Shown here: in pieces, positions 8,018 to 20,146 of the stretch
How the letters are laid out: every line of letters begins with the position of its first letter
How positions within the stretch are numbered: the first letter of the stretch is position 1
From: Promethearchaeum syntrophicum
GTDB taxonomy: Archaea; Asgardarchaeota; Lokiarchaeia; Sigyniarchaeales; Promethearchaeaceae
Reading direction: 5' to 3'
DNA length: 32,000 nt
NCBI RefSeq assembly: GCF_008000775.2
Contig: NZ_CP042905.2
Location: 570,001 to 602,000 of the forward strand
Position numbers and translations under genes: made by a program
Notes under the pieces: model-generated
Told to the model about the DNA's origin: nothing
What the model saw: the letters and a program-made list of their open reading frames with translations, nothing else
Database searches by the model: none

Positions 8018-9577
8018 TTATTTTCGCGTAGATGTGTGCTTGTCTTGATATTTTGACTTCCGAATGAGCCGTTTAAAGCCATGCACAAGATGATACTTAC
8101 TCGTGCTATTCAGTAAATCGGAATTTGTCACCAAAAGCTTGGAGATGTTTCGTCTTAAAGCTCGGGTACGGTGACTTTCAAGAAGAGTCCCTTGATTTGT
8201 AAGATGCTTCTGGAGACGTGCTCGTTTCTTTTCCATAGTCTCATGATAGGGATCATACTGCCGAATTCCGGTCAACATTCCGAATACTATCCGACTATAC
8301 TTAAACGCAACCTTCATCATAGCTTTCTTGAAGGGAAGTTTACGGAGGAGCAGTTGTTTGTACGCATAAGCCCCAATATCTGTGTTACGATCCGGACGGC
8401 TCAAAATGATTGCAGCTGCTTGCGAGAGGGCAGAACGTAAATGTTTATTCGTGAAGCGGTTAACATGGCCCTTGGAGCGAAATGTCCCGCTTTGTTCCAC
8501 TGTAGGAACCACACCGCAGAATTTGCTGAATGCATCGGCGGTGCGGAAGCGAGAATAATTTCCTACCTCCGTGAGGATGGTGAGTACGGTCACCGCATTG
8601 AATCCAGGGATAAAACAGAGCTGTTCGTAGTGGGTACGAAGCGTGGGATGGTTCAACACATATGTTTCGGCTTCTTTCAATAAGATAGCTGCGGCTGCTT
8701 GGGATTCCAAGAGGCGTATGACTTCCACTTGCAAAAGAAAGCATTGAGGTTCCGTGAGTCGGACTTCAGCATGAGGAACTATCTCGGTTGCTTGTCGTTC
8801 TAACACTCTTCCCTGACCATTAGTTTTTAATTCTGCAAGGAATTCTTCGTAGACCTCCCCCAAAGGACGGGATTGGGCAATGTAACGATCCAAGAGTTGG
8901 AGACCCCACTCCGTGTTCAAGTTAAAACTGAATTTCTGATTAGCCAGATGGAGGTGTCGATGGATACGGTTTTTGCAGGTAGTAGTCTGGGTTCTTGTGC
9001 GATGATAGGACCGCATATAGTCCCTTACAGTAAAGAATTCGGGACTTCCCACATAACTTGGGCGTAAAATTCGCTCATAAAACGCTAAATTGGACAATGT
9101 CCGGGCATCAGCTCGATCACTTTTCGTTCCTAAATCTGCAATCCGATTGTGGACTAACAGGGGATTCATGGCAATGAGAAATTCCCTACGAGATGGAAAG
9201 CGTTGTTGAAGTGTTTGATATAAGGCCACGTGGTAAACGCCTGTGCACTCCATCAGAATGGTTGCTTTTGCTTGATAAGGACGCAGAAATCGACATAATT
9301 CTTCCACCCCTTGATGGTGGTTGCGGAAAGTATGTTCACGGATCACCAAGGTTTCTCCAGAAGGAAGGCGTCCGCTCATGCAGAGGGCAATCGAGTCTTT
9401 ATGCACATCCAATCCAATTCCAAAGGCGGTGACTTCTTTGAGGACTTTCACCACTTCCGGATTTCTTGGGGTACGTCGAATACGCTCGATCGAAGGTTTT
9501 TTTTGCTTTGCTGAAATCATTTTATTCACCGAATTCACTGTGATTGAATTCGCGTACATGGCAGGGTGTGTTCGCAT
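8018..9577 (-). CDS. IS110-family transposase/recombinase (DEDD RuvC-like N-domain plus Ser-containing Tnp C-domain)
   Basis: GIGLDVHKDSIAL (first Asp). ILMECTGVYH (Glu). GTKSDRADARTL (Asp pair). IPGFNAVTVLTILTEVGNYSRF...FCGVVPTVEQSGTFRSKGHVNRFTNKHLRSAL (HhH plus catalytic Ser motif). GGAGGT lies 8 nt upstream of the ATG at 9577. At 519 aa it is long for the family, with N- and basic C-terminal extensions. An alternative start exists at 9520. Confidence 0.92.
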   Translation of the reverse strand: MRTHPAMYANSITVNSVNKMISAKQKKPSIERIRRTPRNPEVVKVLKEVTAFGIGLDVHKDSIALCMSGRLPSGETLVIREHTFRNHHQGVEELCRFLRPYQAKATILMECTGVYHVALYQTLQQRFPSRREFLIAMNPLLVHNRIADLGTKSDRADARTLSNLAFYERILRPSYVGSPEFFTVRDYMRSYHRTRTQTTTCKNRIHRHLHLANQKFSFNLNTEWGLQLLDRYIAQSRPLGEVYEEFLAELKTNGQGRVLERQATEIVPHAEVRLTEPQCFLLQVEVIRLLESQAAAAILLKEAETYVLNHPTLRTHYEQLCFIPGFNAVTVLTILTEVGNYSRFRTADAFSKFCGVVPTVEQSGTFRSKGHVNRFTNKHLRSALSQAAAIILSRPDRNTDIGAYAYKQLLLRKLPFKKAMMKVAFKYSRIVFGMLTGIRQYDPYHETMEKKRARLQKHLTNQGTLLESHRTRALRRNISKLLVTNSDLLNSTSKYHLVHGFKRLIRKSKYQDKHTSTRK

Positions 9578-9585
9578 CCTGCCAT

Positions 9586-9940
9586 ACCTCCTTTTAGGTC
9601 TTTTCTTACCCTCAAGGACACGGTGTCATTTCCCCCCCTCTTAGTGATCGTCCGGCTGCGGTCTCGGTTCCTCCCGTGGGTGAAAAAACCCGAAGGATTG
9701 CATCAGCTGCACAGGGGATAGCCGAAATTTCGTGGCATGGGGTTCCCCCTTCGAACGAGCTGTTGCGGTGCTGAGTTCCCACCTGCTCGCCAAGAGGCAA
9801 ACATCCCAATATCTCTGAAAGATTGCTTGACCCTGAGAACCTCCTCCACCAATTTTCGATGAAAGGGTTCCCCACGCGCGGAATGACATACTTTTTTTCG
9901 ATGTGCCTGGTTCAAGACACATAAATTATTAATTGTTCTC
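9586..9940 (-). ncRNA. Candidate bridge RNA encoded in the IS110 left end (extent uncertain, may reach ~9985)
   Basis: ~355 nt directly 5' of the recombinase SD, about 50-55% GC, with no credible ORF (three overlapping - strand frames are open only because stops are rare). Helices found by eye are listed in + strand coordinates. Hairpin at 9901-9922. A three-tier stem spans 9700-9766: GCAACAGC/GCTGATGC encloses AGGGG/CCCCT, which encloses GCC/GGC, with internal loops of 8/5 nt and 9/3 nt. The position matches that of bridge RNAs in IS110-group elements. Confidence 0.45.
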
Positions 9941-10231
9941 CAATCACATTCGGGGGAGTTGGTGTTGATATGACTCCGTGATAATTATTTTGTCGACTTC
10001 CTTTATAAAAATTTGGAGAATGGCTTGTACCGTAAACTTCATGGCTGAAAGTATCTTATACCGTAAACTTGCAATCTCAATGGAGGCGAAGGGGGGTCTT
10101 TTGACAGAAAATATCCTAAAATTAACTAGAGAAAGAGTAAACGAATGTGATTGGAAGAGATCAGAATCATATCTCAAAGAAAAAGCATTGTAGAATGAAA
10201 GAAAAAAGAAAATAAAAAAATGTCACGAAAA

Positions 10232-11635: not shown

Positions 11636-12178
11636 TTACAGAAATTCCTTGTCTATCTTAATTTTAATATTACTTTTCTTTTCAGTAGCCCCTTGCTTTT
11701 CTTTTCGCTTATCTTTCAAATAGGGAATTAATTTTTTGAGGCTGATACTAATTATAGCAATACTACCCGCTATGATTATTATCCAAATTGCATATGTAGG
11801 AGATACAAAATCTTTGAAAATTGTTTTCGTATAAGTGGTTCCTATATTATCTTTTCCAACTAGTGTTATATTCATTAATCCAAATGGATATTCTTCTGTT
11901 TTGAAACGAAATTCGAGTTCATTTCCAGATTCAAAGTCTTCTTGAGTTCCATTAAAAAAAAGTGTTAAATTTACAATATAATCTGGACCCGAACCCGTTA
12001 TCTTAAAATCCCCTTCAATTTTATCCCCATCAAGAGAAGTTGTTCCAACAATTTTTGAAACTCTTAGGAATAAAACTTCTTCATCTTGGCCGTTAGCATT
12101 CATAATAACTGAATTTAAAGAAAAAAGCAGAATAAAAGTGAAAATAATTAATGAATATTTATGTTTATTCGATTTCAT
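11636..12178 (-). CDS. Small surface protein: signal peptide, beta-rich ectodomain, C-terminal TM anchor (paralog 1)
   Basis: 180 aa with an N-terminal hydrophobic signal. Conserved QDEEVLFL, GDKIEG, GSGPD, NLTL.FNG and GLMNITL blocks are shared with 12306-12848. NxT sequons are conserved. TM segment plus a basic tail. Confidence 0.7.
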   Translation of the reverse strand: MKSNKHKYSLIIFTFILLFSLNSVIMNANGQDEEVLFLRVSKIVGTTSLDGDKIEGDFKITGSGPDYIVNLTLFFNGTQEDFESGNELEFRFKTEEYPFGLMNITLVGKDNIGTTYTKTIFKDFVSPTYAIWIIIIAGSIAIISISLKKLIPYLKDKRKEKQGATEKKSNIKIKIDKEFL

Positions 12179-12305: not shown

Positions 12306-12848
12306 TTATTTACGAAATTTCTTATCTATAACAATTTTAATTTTGTTTTTCTTCTCAGCAAAGCTTTGCTTTTTATCTTTCATTTCTTTTCTATCAGAAA
12401 TTATTTTTAATATTACAATCGCACCAATAAAAGTAATTACACCCGATAAGATTACAATCCAACTTCCAACTTTTGGTGAAATAAATTCTTTGAAAATTGC
12501 TTTTTCATAAAATAATCCTTCACTATCTTCTCCTATCAGCGTAATATTCATTAAACCTAAAGAATAATTTTTTGTATAAAACTGAAATATGAGATGATTA
12601 TCAGATTCAAATGCAACTTTAACTCCGTTAAATAACAATGTTAAATTTAAAATAAAATCAGGACCAGAGCCGTTTATTGTAAAAATTCCCTCTATTTTAT
12701 CCCCAATTACCGCTCCGTCATCTCTCAGAATTTCTAAGAATAAGACTTCTTCATCTTGGGCATTAATGTTCAAAATTACTGAAATGAAAGAAATGAGAAG
12801 AATAAAAATGAACATAATTAGAGAATGTTTATGCTTTAAAGGTTTCAT
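12306..12848 (-). CDS. Small surface protein (paralog 2, tandem duplicate)
   Basis: Same length (180 aa) and architecture as 11636-12178. Roughly half of the positions are identical by eye. Confidence 0.7.
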   Translation of the reverse strand: MKPLKHKHSLIMFIFILLISFISVILNINAQDEEVLFLEILRDDGAVIGDKIEGIFTINGSGPDFILNLTLLFNGVKVAFESDNHLIFQFYTKNYSLGLMNITLIGEDSEGLFYEKAIFKEFISPKVGSWIVILSGVITFIGAIVILKIISDRKEMKDKKQSFAEKKNKIKIVIDKKFRK

Positions 12849-17462: not shown

Positions 17463-18614
17463 ATGTCTAATGAAAAAATATTTGATAAACGAAAAGAAAT
17501 ACTCAAAGAACTTGTTTTACAACTTCATGCTGGAAACGAAGATCTTCCGAAATTAAAAAAGAAATTTAAAGATGAGCTAGGGGATGTTTCGGCCTCAGAA
17601 ATAGCCGTTATGGAGCAAGAGCTAATAGATAGCGGTGTTTTAACAGCTGAACAAATAACTAAATTATGCGATATTCATGTTGATATCTTTCGATCTTCTC
17701 TTGAAACTCATGAAAGCCCACAGTCTATTCCGGGCCATCCTATTCACACATACACTGCCGAAAATGAAAAAGCAAAAGAATTGATTCGGAAACTAAAAGC
17801 AGATTTCAATCCGATGGATCTCATCCAATTGAAACAAATAAATACGCATTATACACGACTTGAGAATCAATTATTCCCAATGCTTGAAAAAGTCGGATTT
17901 TCTGGACCATCGCAGGTTATGTGGGCGAAACATGATGAAATTCGGGATATGTTTAATAAAGCTGATAAAGAGAAAGTTGAAGAATTATTGGATTCTGTAG
18001 CAGACATGATCTTCAAAGAAGAAGGGATTCTTTTTCCCGCTTCCTTAGAAAAATTGACTGAAGCACAGTGGGTTGAAGTGAAAAATGGAGAAGAAGAAAT
18101 TGGATTTGCATGGGTAAAACCTGGATCCGAATGGAAACCAGTAACACCAGAAGGTATTCATGGAAAAGATAATCCAAATGTATTACCAGATTCATTATCT
18201 AATTTAGGATTACTTCAAATGAAGACTGGGAAAATGTCTCTTGAACTAGTAAATCTTATGATAACTCATTTACCTGTAGATTTGTCATTTATTGATGAAA
18301 ATGATAATGTTTTATATTATTCGGATGTTCCAGATCGCTTATTTCCGCGAAGTCCAGGTGTAATCGGAAGAAACGTTAAGAATTGTCATCCTCCGAAAAG
18401 CCAAGACATCGTGCTTCGGATACTTGATGCTTTCAAAAAAGGAGAAAAGAATGTCGCAGAATTTTGGTTGGAAATCAAAGGGCAATTCATCTACATTCGA
18501 TATTTTGCTGTTCGGGACAAAGATGGAAAATATCGCGGAACTTTAGAAGTTAGTCAAGATATAACTAATATTCGAAAGTTAGAAGGCACAAAACGACTAT
18601 TAAATTGGTCTTAG
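17463..18614 (+). CDS. DUF438 / hemerythrin-like / PAS domain protein
   Basis: The N-terminus (LHAGNEDLPKLKKKFKDELGDVSASEIAVMEQELIDSGVLTAEQITKLCDIHVDIFR) matches the DUF438 pattern as remembered. The C-terminal segment (FIDENDNVLYYS...NCHPPKS...) is the PAS-like part of this family. Confidence 0.75.
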   Translation: MSNEKIFDKRKEILKELVLQLHAGNEDLPKLKKKFKDELGDVSASEIAVMEQELIDSGVLTAEQITKLCDIHVDIFRSSLETHESPQSIPGHPIHTYTAENEKAKELIRKLKADFNPMDLIQLKQINTHYTRLENQLFPMLEKVGFSGPSQVMWAKHDEIRDMFNKADKEKVEELLDSVADMIFKEEGILFPASLEKLTEAQWVEVKNGEEEIGFAWVKPGSEWKPVTPEGIHGKDNPNVLPDSLSNLGLLQMKTGKMSLELVNLMITHLPVDLSFIDENDNVLYYSDVPDRLFPRSPGVIGRNVKNCHPPKSQDIVLRILDAFKKGEKNVAEFWLEIKGQFIYIRYFAVRDKDGKYRGTLEVSQDITNIRKLEGTKRLLNWS

Positions 18615-18794
18615 TTAAAATTGTGCAATCTTTAAAGAAAACCCCTTTTTTTTATGTATTTTTGAAATAAATCTAAAATTTTTGTTGACAAAATATAACT
18701 CAAAATGAGAAAAAGCAAATTATCAATAATAATTAGATATAATAAACAAAAATTAGGCTAGTCTAATAATATTAAAATATTAAAATGGAGGTAA

Positions 18795-19493
18795 ATTATT
18801 CTGGTAGATGAACATGTTCATAATCCAAAGGCTAAATTTGGATTAGAAGTCGGTGAAAAAGTCCCTTTTTTTGAAATAAATGATGTAAATGGACAGATTA
18901 TAAATATTGATAAAATGATTTCTCAGCAACCTGTTCTCCTTAACTTTTTTCGAGGGCATTATTGAGTTCCCTGCAAGAAATTTCTATCACTTTTAACCGA
19001 GAATCAAACAAAATTTGATGAAAAAAACGTGTCAGTCTTAGCAATTGCTAGGGACCCGCCAAAAAAATTAAAGAACTTCAAGCATTCAAACAAATTTTCC
19101 ATGCCTATTATTGCCGATATGAAAGGGGATATTGTAAAAAATTATAAAGTTTATACAACTGGAAATATGGTTGACCATGCATTTCTAAAATTTAAACTGG
19201 CAATACCTACAACCTATTTAATCGGCATAAATGGTATAATCACATGGCGCTACGTTGGAACTCGAGAAGATAGACCCAGTATCTCACAAATTTTCCAAGC
19301 GATAGAAGAAAATCTTAATGAACTCAACAAAAGTAAAAAAATATCCACTAATGAAAGATCAACCAAAAACAGTAAACCACTGGTGTTTTACGATTATTTG
19401 GTATGCAGCCAATTATCTTTCATAAAAATGGTGCAGAATTTTTTTTTTAATACATTTTTTTTTTATGTAGAATTCTATAACGATTTTCGTTGA
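18795..19493 (+). CDS. Prx-like2/AhpC-TSA-family redoxin with an in-frame TGA (18963-18965) at the first Cys of CxxC: selenoprotein candidate or pseudogene
   Basis: Reading frame 0 upstream of the 19029 ORF gives GLEVGEKVPFFEINDVNGQIINIDKMISQQPVLLNFFRGHY-TGA-VPCKKFL...VSVLAIARD. This is the FxRGxWCPxC redoxin motif with TGA in place of the first Cys. GGAGGT sits at 18787-18792, but only ATT (18795/18798) or CTG (18801) are available as in-frame starts. The C-terminal ~55 aa are low-complexity and overlap the convergent gene. Confidence 0.5.
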
Positions 19494-20146
19494 AGAACTA
19501 AAACGGTCACTAAATTTACCAAGAATGTTAATATCAATCCAATGATAAGAGCATAGGCAATTGTGTTAATACTTTCAAAGAAAATTCCTGGTAAGACTGC
19601 AATCAAACTTAATTGATTTCCCAAATATATGGCTAAAATTACTGCCAACATTGTGGAATTTACTAAAATTCCTATTAATATCGATATTGAGCAGGAAATT
19701 GCCATGGCACTTAAACTAATTGTCAATGAATCCCAAACCCCATCTAGTAAGGTTTCAATAGGGATATCTGTTTTTATTAAATCAAGAATAATTCCAATAA
19801 GTACACTCAGAAGCGTTGCAATCATTATGCATAAATAAACAGCAATTAATTTAGCGAACATCAAATTCCAGCGCTTAACTGGCCGAATCAGGAATAAATC
19901 GTATACATGGCGATCTTTTTCCGATACAATTGTAGTACTTATCATAACAGAAGCTAAAGTACCACTTAAAGAAGAGACCATTAATCCTACGAAAATACTA
20001 ATCGGAATGCCTTCAGTATCTGGTTGTAAATAATGGAGGAATAAACTTATCAAGGGCATGCCAATCCATAAGACCACCATCACTTTACTTTTATAAAATC
20101 CCTTGAATTCATCTTTAATTAATAAACTTAGGCTCATTTTATACAT
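19475..20146 (-). CDS. ABC-2-type transporter permease
   Basis: 223 aa with 6 predicted TM segments. Its start overlaps the stop of the upstream ATPase gene by 8 nt, which suggests translational coupling. Confidence 0.7.
   Translation of the reverse strand: MYKMSLSLLIKDEFKGFYKSKVMVVLWIGMPLISLFLHYLQPDTEGIPISIFVGLMVSSLSGTLASVMISTTIVSEKDRHVYDLFLIRPVKRWNLMFAKLIAVYLCIMIATLLSVLIGIILDLIKTDIPIETLLDGVWDSLTISLSAMAISCSISILIGILVNSTMLAVILAIYLGNQLSLIAVLPGIFFESINTIAYALIIGLILTFLVNLVTVLVLQRKSL

Follow-up and report, generated by a model that had tools for sequence, protein, structure and literature searches.

A PrxL gene of Promethearchaeum syntrophicum MK-D1 that very probably encodes a selenoprotein, with a lost stop codon and a candidate three-way-junction SECIS element

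Does the TGA that interrupts a redoxin-like reading frame in Promethearchaeum (Prometheoarchaeum) syntrophicum MK-D1 specify selenocysteine (Sec), or is the frame the relic of a decayed gene? The question is raised by a 32,000-nucleotide stretch of DNA, the whole of which is called the window here and to which all unqualified positions refer. The frame beginning at 18795 on the forward strand translates as IILVDEHVHNPKAKFGLEVGEKVPFFEINDVNGQIINIDKMISQQPVLLNFFRGHY*VPCKKF..., where the interruption is the TGA at 18963-18965, in the context FFRGHY-TGA-VPC. A sequence-only reading of this DNA had placed the TGA at the first redox Cys of a Prx-like redoxin and proposed that it encodes Sec. The same reading listed as caveats the lack of a canonical start codon, of a convincing SECIS-like hairpin and of a 3′ end clear of the convergent gene, and it named a TGC/TGT-to-TGA pseudogene as the alternative. 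Judging from the sequence of the gene and its relatives, we consider it highly probable that the window gene is a PrxL thiol:disulfide oxidoreductase selenoprotein of MK-D1.

The frame was translated with Cys in place of the TGA and compared with Pfam. It matched AhpC-TSA (PF00578; E=1.7e-24; score 86.6 bits, cut-off 26) over a single uninterrupted stretch, residues 19-151, that runs across the TGA, and chance is excluded as an explanation of this match by a wide margin. The PrxL coding sequence (CDS) is assigned to 18801..19388 (+), 196 codons from a CTG to a final Phe codon (TTT, 19386-19388), in which the Sec codon (18963..18965, +) is residue 55 and occupies position 1 of a U-V-P-C redox box. 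The only Cys of the 196-aa product is C58. Its box reads Y-U-V-P-C and is of the CxxC type; the peroxidatic T/S-x-x-C motif of typical Prx proteins is absent from the window protein. The best PDB matches were 3hjp (Bcp-4, E=1.6e-13), 2cx3 and 4nmu (ResA), and among the NCBIfam models run on the window protein those for ResA and SelL-related proteins matched below their cut-offs, with no model reaching its curated cut-off. An independent assembly of DRR199588 (Logan) is 100% identical to the window over 801 nt, including the TGA, the absent start and a TAC codon near the 3′ end that is discussed below, indicating that none of these oddities is an artefact of a single assembly. The frame itself, the domain match across the TGA and the second assembly thus confirm that an in-frame TGA stands at the first redox Cys of a Prx-like redoxin.

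The gene has been catalogued before. The first report of PrxL selenoproteins in Lokiarchaeota is that of Mariotti et al. 2016 (PMC4989117), who also remarked that PrxL proteins lack Cys beyond the redox box, and we agree with the earlier statement that Sec use is known in this group. PrxL is among the five widespread Asgard selenoprotein families. In the portion of Huang, Xiao & Zhang 2024 available to us (PMC11227280), the Prx-like set holds an entry, "Lokiarchaeia_GCA_008000775_U", that runs MISQQ...YNDFR with X at the TGA and is an exact string match to the window protein; GCA_008000775.1 is strain MK-D1, CP042905. The same portion of that paper gives for this genome Sec-containing SelD, FrhA, FrhD and HdrA as well as two additional PrxL proteins. 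The selenoprotein status of the window gene is therefore a correct call that was already known and published in 2024. Relative to that entry as available, what is added here is a correction of the start, the loss of the stop codon in MK-D1, a three-helix RNA element and the recurrence of its loop.

Comparison with known proteins places the product within this family, with some peculiarities. Like other Lokiarchaeia PrxL proteins (PMC4989117, PMC11227280), it combines an AhpC/TSA thioredoxin fold with a UxxC box that has Sec first and no other Cys in 196 aa, and its gene carries a 3′ RNA element near the stop that partly overlaps the CDS. Unlike them, it sits on a long separate branch in the published tree as available (branch length 0.53; PMC11227280), has a conserved extra tail of ~25 aa running into the RNA element, begins at a non-canonical start and, in MK-D1, has lost its stop. 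Fold and redox-box position are shared with bacterial Prx-like/ResA/TlpA CxxC oxidoreductases and with Bcp/PrxQ; it differs from all of these in having Sec in place of Cys, and UxxC rather than the T/S-xx-C of true Prx.

The redox site was then compared among eight other copies of the gene: L001a and L001b, which lie in tandem, L003, L004, L024, L034, L027 and L028 (L002 duplicates L001a). A scan of metagenomes produced one extra orthologue only. Amino acid identity to the window product ranges over 58-91%, being 58% for L027, 64% for L028 and, where measured, 83-91% for the close copies L001a, L001b, L003, L004, L024 and L034. All eight have TGA at the redox codon, making nine with the window, while the flanking codons vary synonymously (CAT TAT TGA GTT CCC TGC; CAT TAC TGA GTT CCG TGT; CAC TTT TGA GTG CCA TGT). 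The TGA aligns with the first U/C of the UxxC or UxxU of published PrxL proteins (HY-U-VP-C versus W-U-xx-C/U), and the Cys homologues P0014, P0016 and P0038 have CxxC at the aligned position. The orthologue alignment proposed as a check on the Sec reading thus returned TGA throughout the gene copies and CxxC in the Cys homologues.

Selection was estimated by the pairwise Nei-Gojobori method among five close copies (window, L001a, L003, L004 and L024), between which dS is 0.5-1.3. In this set dN/dS is 0.07-0.16 for the CDS as a whole, 0.06-0.29 for the part 5′ of the TGA and 0.06-0.18 for the part 3′ of it. Values of ~0.1 on either side indicate that the two halves form one translated protein, and purifying selection on both sides, together with retention of the TGA in all copies, means that ribosomes must read through the UGA. 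These comparisons support the TGA at 18963 as a real selenocysteine codon of a Prx-like redox protein; the nine gene copies, the selection on both flanks, the CxxC homologues and the published catalogue entry all speak for the Sec reading. Frameshifts or additional stops in orthologues had been named as evidence that would count against it. One frameshift was found, of 2 nt in L001b; the window copy is free of frameshifts, and all copies retain the TGA.

The tandem copy L001b lies at L001 12438-13077 on a 216-kb metagenomic contig, 2.6 kb downstream of the first copy, to which it is 92% identical. Its start is ATG, and both the TGA and the 3′ element are retained; a 2-nt insertion (GGGATATCCACC) shifts the frame and points either to a pseudogene or to an error in sequencing.

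Elsewhere in the window TGA terminates three of the 24 long ORFs, and a genome-wide reassignment of the codon is thereby excluded. A scan of the window for further ORF-TGA-ORF read-through candidates gave none that was credible. No gene for tRNA-Sec, PSTK, SepSecS, EFSec or SelD was found within the 32-kb window; a SelD (P0049) annotated to Ca. P. syntrophicum was found in the protein database. Public gene calls for three PrxL relatives (P0005, P0011 and P0012) print W at the Sec codon (…LRDLRWPYCRAH…), and translation with a code in which TGA is Trp thereby hides these selenoproteins as seemingly complete Trp proteins.

Where does translation begin? No ATG, GTG or TTG occurs between a TAA at 18792-18794 and an internal ATG, codon 39 counted from the CTG, and in this respect the caveat about the start was justified. 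As a sign of decay it does not stand, because the non-canonical start is conserved in the other copies. The TAA abuts the 3′ end of a Shine-Dalgarno-like GGAGG (18787..18791, +) and is followed by ATT ATT CTG GTA GAT GAA. In the window, L001a, L003, L004 and L034, GGAGG or GGAGA stands equally far from ATT CTG, and in the window, L003, L004 and L034 the string ATT CTG GTA GAT GAA is conserved with a stop immediately 5′ of it. L027 and L028 open with ATG GT(C/T) at the position of the window's CTG GTA, and in L001b an ATG has arisen three codons upstream. Codons 1-38 supply the opening strands of the Pfam domain, and their product can be aligned with the N-termini of other PrxL proteins; over these codons pS is 0.18-0.54 and pN 0.04-0.12, giving pN/pS of ~0.15-0.3. 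The non-canonical candidates occupy 18798..18803 (+), namely ATT at 18798, 6 nt past the GGAGG, and CTG at 18801. On these grounds translation most likely starts at CUG 18801 or AUU 18798, 6-9 nt past the GGAGG, and the start of the published model, the internal Met of MISQQ, looks wrong in the entry as available and would be ~38 conserved codons short. Since 21 of the 24 long window ORFs start with ATG, a PrxL gene without one is unusual for its genome.

Further upstream, the promoter/5′ leader contains an inverted repeat, TTAGGC-TA-GTCTAA (18753..18766, +), between a TATA-like AGATATAATAAA and the GGAGG. Its arms, TTAGAC/GTCTAA, are kept in all orthologues around a variable 2-nt spacer (TA, GT or AC), and the repeat is probably a regulator binding site, a candidate operator of the redoxin gene.

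The 3′ end of the MK-D1 gene is exceptional. Seven close copies all terminate in ...SKPL(V/M)F-TAG; MK-D1 alone has TAC (Tyr) in place of the TAG, at 19389..19391 (+), a position in the 3′ strand of helix P2 of the RNA element described below, where the substitution turns a C-G pair into C:C. The MK-D1 ORF continues for 33 codons past the TAC (DYLVCSQLSF...YNDFR; 19392..19493, +), through P3, the 3′ strand of P1 and the terminator, and is closed by the TGA at 19491-19493, with a 19-nt overlap between its 3′ end and the convergent ABC-2 permease gene (19475-20146, minus strand). The overlap with the convergent gene reported from the sequence alone is thus borne out, and its cause is the TAG to TAC change at the ancestral stop. 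The peptide NSKPLVFYDYLVCSQLSFIK is part of the predicted read-through tail, which also holds the sole additional Cys of the window ORF. In orthologues the sequence matching 19392-19493 lies downstream of the TAG and, in some, contains additional in-frame stops. It is probably not ancestral coding sequence, and the published model, in the entry as available, looks wrong at its end in taking in this MK-D1 tail. L027 and L028 terminate ~25 codons earlier, directly past a conserved ...AIEENI/L... helix; together with the TAG of the close copies, these earlier stops indicate that the ORF was lengthened twice, once in the Promethearchaeum-like clade and then again in MK-D1.

Between the convergent genes lie two T10 runs (19439-19448 and 19455-19464), and a T-run is found 3′ of the RNA element in all orthologues and paralogues. 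The runs at 19439-19464 are probable archaeal oligo-U terminators, as judged from their sequence; a scan for bacterial-type promoters and terminators was uninformative. If the T10 runs do end transcription, the MK-D1 mRNA may be without an in-frame stop. In comparisons involving the window copy dN/dS is 0.07-0.12, not raised relative to other pairs, so any loss of function in the MK-D1 copy would be recent.

How, then, might the UGA be recognised? Folding and covariance analysis revealed a three-way junction at 19351..19423 (+) that is a candidate SECIS. Helix P1 (19351-19359/19415-19423) pairs AUGAAAGAU with AUCUUUCAU. Helix P2 (19363-19371/19384-19392) consists of CCAAAAACA and UGUUUUACG around the apical loop GUAAACCACUGG (19372-19383), and P3 (19398-19402/19408-19412) is UUGGU, loop AUGCA, GCCAA. 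The 5′ end of the element lies inside the CDS, overlapping its last 13 codons, its 3′ end falls ~15 nt short of the oligo-U terminator, and the TAG stop of the orthologues is located within the 3′ strand of P2.

This three-way fold is the minimum free energy (MFE) structure in five independent lineages (RNAalifold, RNAfold). Four further elements with wholly different stems adopt the identical architecture as their MFE fold, with z-scores of -2.3 to -3.8; their P2 loops are GUAAACAAAAAAUG (L025), GUAAACCUAUGG (L026), GUAAACCAUUAGG (L027) and GUAAACCCUAGG (L028), L025 and L026 being the other MK-D1 PrxL genes. The apical loop motif GUAAACCNNNGG recurs in these two other MK-D1 genes and appears as AUAAACCAUUGG in a related SelD SECIS. 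When only six close copies were used to train a covariance model, it recovered L027 (E ~1e-5) and L028 (E ~6e-4), both correctly placed and outside the training set, and matched L026 and L025 weakly. In an alignment fitted to the model, a procedure that favours the structure, pairing holds in 95% of cells and both partners vary in 17 of 24 pairs, while none of 500 shuffles reached as high a pairing and slid controls gave 39-54%. Within the element nucleotide diversity is 0.09-0.12, whereas third codon positions of the CDS body reach 0.32. The C:C that the TAC introduces into P2 lowers the predicted stability of the window element to -15.1 kcal/mol, from between -20 and -24 in orthologues. In L034 the inner part of P1 and the lower part of P2 are weakened without compensating changes and the mini-stem is lost, leaving as the firm core the outer part of P1, the upper 6 bp of P2 with the GUAAACC loop, and P3.

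Searches for a SECIS of known form had a different outcome. Rfam, run in E-value mode on 18600-19800 and in gathering mode on the whole window, reported no SECIS and a tRNA-Cys alone, and PatScan-like scans of the 3′ region (NNGAN-stem-loop-stem-[G/A]A; strict lokiSECIS) returned only non-conserved chance matches in AT-rich DNA. In the work of Huang et al. (PMC11227280) the stretch searched for a SECIS opened 30 nt ahead of the extended stop at 19493 and would have missed 19351-19423. The AUGA at 19351 and the GA at 19392-19393 (AGGA in L003 and L004) could also be combined into a eukaryote-type fold. This was rejected: L001a and L024 have GG in place of the GA, the spacing is asymmetric, and the helices P1 and P3, with which such a fold competes, are better supported. 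The SECIS-model check suggested with the Sec reading was therefore negative for Rfam and the strict patterns, and it was folding and covariance that brought out the three-way element. Likewise, the statement that no convincing SECIS-like hairpin exists is right as regards a canonical or Rfam SECIS and wrong as regards a conserved SECIS-like structure, which is present at 19351-19423; the non-canonical form of the element explains why it went unrecognised.

The element was set against SECIS elements of relatives. The HdrA-FrhD loci used are those of two related MAGs (L029 and L032), not MK-D1's own, and the SelD locus is that of a close relative (L031). The textbook lokiSECIS, carried by the related HdrA-FrhD loci, has the form AUGA, 9 bp, 11-nt loop, 9 bp, GA. 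In L029 (4341-4377) it reads AUGA-AUUUUGUGA-GGAAAUAUUUG-UCACAAAAU-GA, with the FrhD stop overlapping the AUGA, and in L032 (1527-1563) AUGA-CUCUUGUGA-GAAAAUUUUAG-UCUCAAGAG-GA, with the FrhD stop 1 nt upstream of the AUGA. The SelD SECIS of L031 (1974-2012), AUGA-U-8bp-AUAAACCAUUGG-8bp-U-GA, has an ideal kink-turn and the same P1/P2/P3 layout as the PrxL elements. The occurrence of a kink-turn SECIS in this layout with a common loop indicates that the P2 of PrxL is the counterpart of the upper stem and loop of a genuine SECIS. At all three comparison loci the SECIS is followed by a small hairpin (loop with UGCGA, GCAA or GCAAA), which corresponds to P3 of the PrxL elements, and then by a U-run.

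In common with lokiSECIS and Asgard eSECIS-like elements, the PrxL element lies at the 3′ end, and its P2 has a 9-bp stem and an A-rich loop beginning G-U-A-A-A. This loop matches the G[U/G]AAA apical-loop variant reported in the available portion of Huang et al. (PMC11227280). Unlike in lokiSECIS, P2 is not bordered by an AUGA/GA quartet, Watson-Crick CC/GG pairs occupying the sites of the tandem G:A pairs, and it forms a three-way junction with P1 and the small hairpin P3. Three of the five lineages do have an AUGA in the 5′ strand of P1, where its partner is UCAU or UCGU. A canonical type I lokiSECIS is defined by AUGA directly 5′ and GA (or AA) directly 3′ of a ~9-bp stem whose ~11-nt loop starts with adenines; P2 is instead flanked by (AU)CAA and AUUAU, and the 3′ region has no conserved AUGA/GA match. 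A type II eSECIS-like element is defined by an upper stem of 7-15 bp, a bulge of 4-12 nt with conserved A's, a mini-stem of 2-8 bp, an apical loop of 2-6 nt and a GA_[G/A]A core. Against this definition the 9-bp P2, the GUAAA, the CC/GG and the 3-nt loop fit, and the core is absent; the likeness lies in the CC/GG mini-stem found in most PrxL copies, which is missing in L034. The element at 19351-19423 is likely to be the SECIS of the window gene, a candidate without the canonical AUGA/GA core. The broader proposal, that PrxL genes of the Promethearchaeum lineage use as their SECIS a three-way junction that keeps only the G/A-UAAACC loop and has no AUGA/GA kink-turn core, is a tentative one, and we think it somewhat less probable than its opposite.

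Some features of the surrounding DNA were also recorded. Directly upstream of the PrxL gene, 17463-18614 (+) encodes a protein with DUF438, hemerythrin and PAS_10 domains, plausibly an O2 or redox sensor candidate. This neighbour is missing at L001 and L034, the two orthologous loci with upstream gene calls, and no functional link with the PrxL gene is therefore claimed. On the minus strand, 8018-9950 encodes a 519-aa IS110-family transposase (DEDD_Tnp_IS110 and Transposase_20) within an island of high GC content (0.44-0.60; the window averages 0.34). IS110 elements encode a guide ('bridge') RNA at the position upstream of the transposase. Here, the 300-nt GC-rich stretch upstream of the transposase start (9578 to ~9900) had no match in Pfam or Rfam, and folding of this flank gave no energy signal (z=0.07). 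Two adjacent minus-strand ORFs of equal length (11636-12178 and 12306-12848; 180 aa each), with no Pfam match, may be tandem paralogues.

Three other explanations have to be weighed against a functional selenoprotein gene. Were the whole gene a plain TGC/TGT-to-TGA pseudogene and its frame a relic, the absence of a canonical start, the lost stop of the window copy and the absence of a canonical SECIS would all be natural; a relic, however, would have gathered more stops and frameshifts, and it would not be expected to keep the TGA in nine copies with dN/dS of ~0.1 on both sides at dS of 0.5-1.3 among the five close copies, to conserve the 3′ RNA element or to have been published as a selenoprotein. 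We regard this explanation as extremely improbable, and on the strength of conservation and dN/dS the pseudogene alternative is rejected for the family, leaving it as a minor possibility for the MK-D1 copy alone. Slightly less improbable, though still very unlikely, is that near-cognate decoding inserts Cys or Trp at the UGA. The W printed in P0005, P0011 and P0012 would suit such decoding, but it reflects only the translation table of the gene callers. The codon stands at the catalytic first Cys of the CxxC box, and a Trp there would do away with the redox chemistry; other genes of the window use TGA as an ordinary stop; the genome is reported, in the available portion of that work, to encode Sec-containing SelD and other selenoproteins (PMC11227280); and the conserved 3′ element has a loop in common with the SelD SECIS.

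The remaining explanation concerns MK-D1 alone, namely that its copy is an incipient pseudogene in a functional family, with two other PrxL genes covering the function. The TAC in MK-D1 against TAG in all seven close copies, the C:C mismatch and lower stability of the window P2 and element, the position of the next in-frame stop (19491) past both T10 runs and the two PrxL paralogues of the genome would all fit, and the L001b frameshift is an instance of decay within the PrxL family. Nevertheless, dN/dS of the window pairs is no higher than that of others, neither a frameshift nor an additional stop occurs in the window copy, its MFE structure remains the three-way fold, and a C-terminal extension by itself need not inactivate a redoxin. 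Looked at for the marks of a pseudogene, that is, extra stops or frameshifts and relaxed dN/dS, the window copy shows none, and the lost TAG is its single sign of decay. We consider incipient loss unlikely, if appreciably less so than the two explanations above. As a family PrxL is functional, with the state of the MK-D1 copy less certain.

For the preferred reading, a selenoprotein gene, a mechanism can be proposed from the archaeal and eukaryotic pathway. UGA would be decoded as Sec by tRNA-Sec together with the archaeal Sec-specific elongation factor (EFSec), and an RNA element at the 3′ end, for which the 19351-19423 junction is the best candidate, would direct the decoding of the UGA ~390 nt upstream. 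The Sec-Cys pair would then alternate between selenenylsulfide and reduced states and so reduce a disulfide or a peroxide. The product is most likely a Sec-dependent thiol-disulfide or peroxide reductase.

As the gene was already published, the main selenoprotein claim adds nothing to the catalogue of selenoproteins. The published and database models of the MK-D1 protein, in the form available, nevertheless look wrong at both ends, starting late and including the tail, and the lost stop leads one to ask whether the MK-D1 copy continues to be expressed. MK-D1 is among the few cultured Asgard archaea, and its PrxL genes offer a SECIS variant that can be tested. The kink-turn core that seems to be absent from the MK-D1 PrxL element is thought to link Sec decoding in Asgard archaea with that in eukaryotes. 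If a junction without a kink-turn does serve as the SECIS, the kink-turn would not be a strict requirement of Asgard Sec decoding, whose main determinant would be the apical loop.
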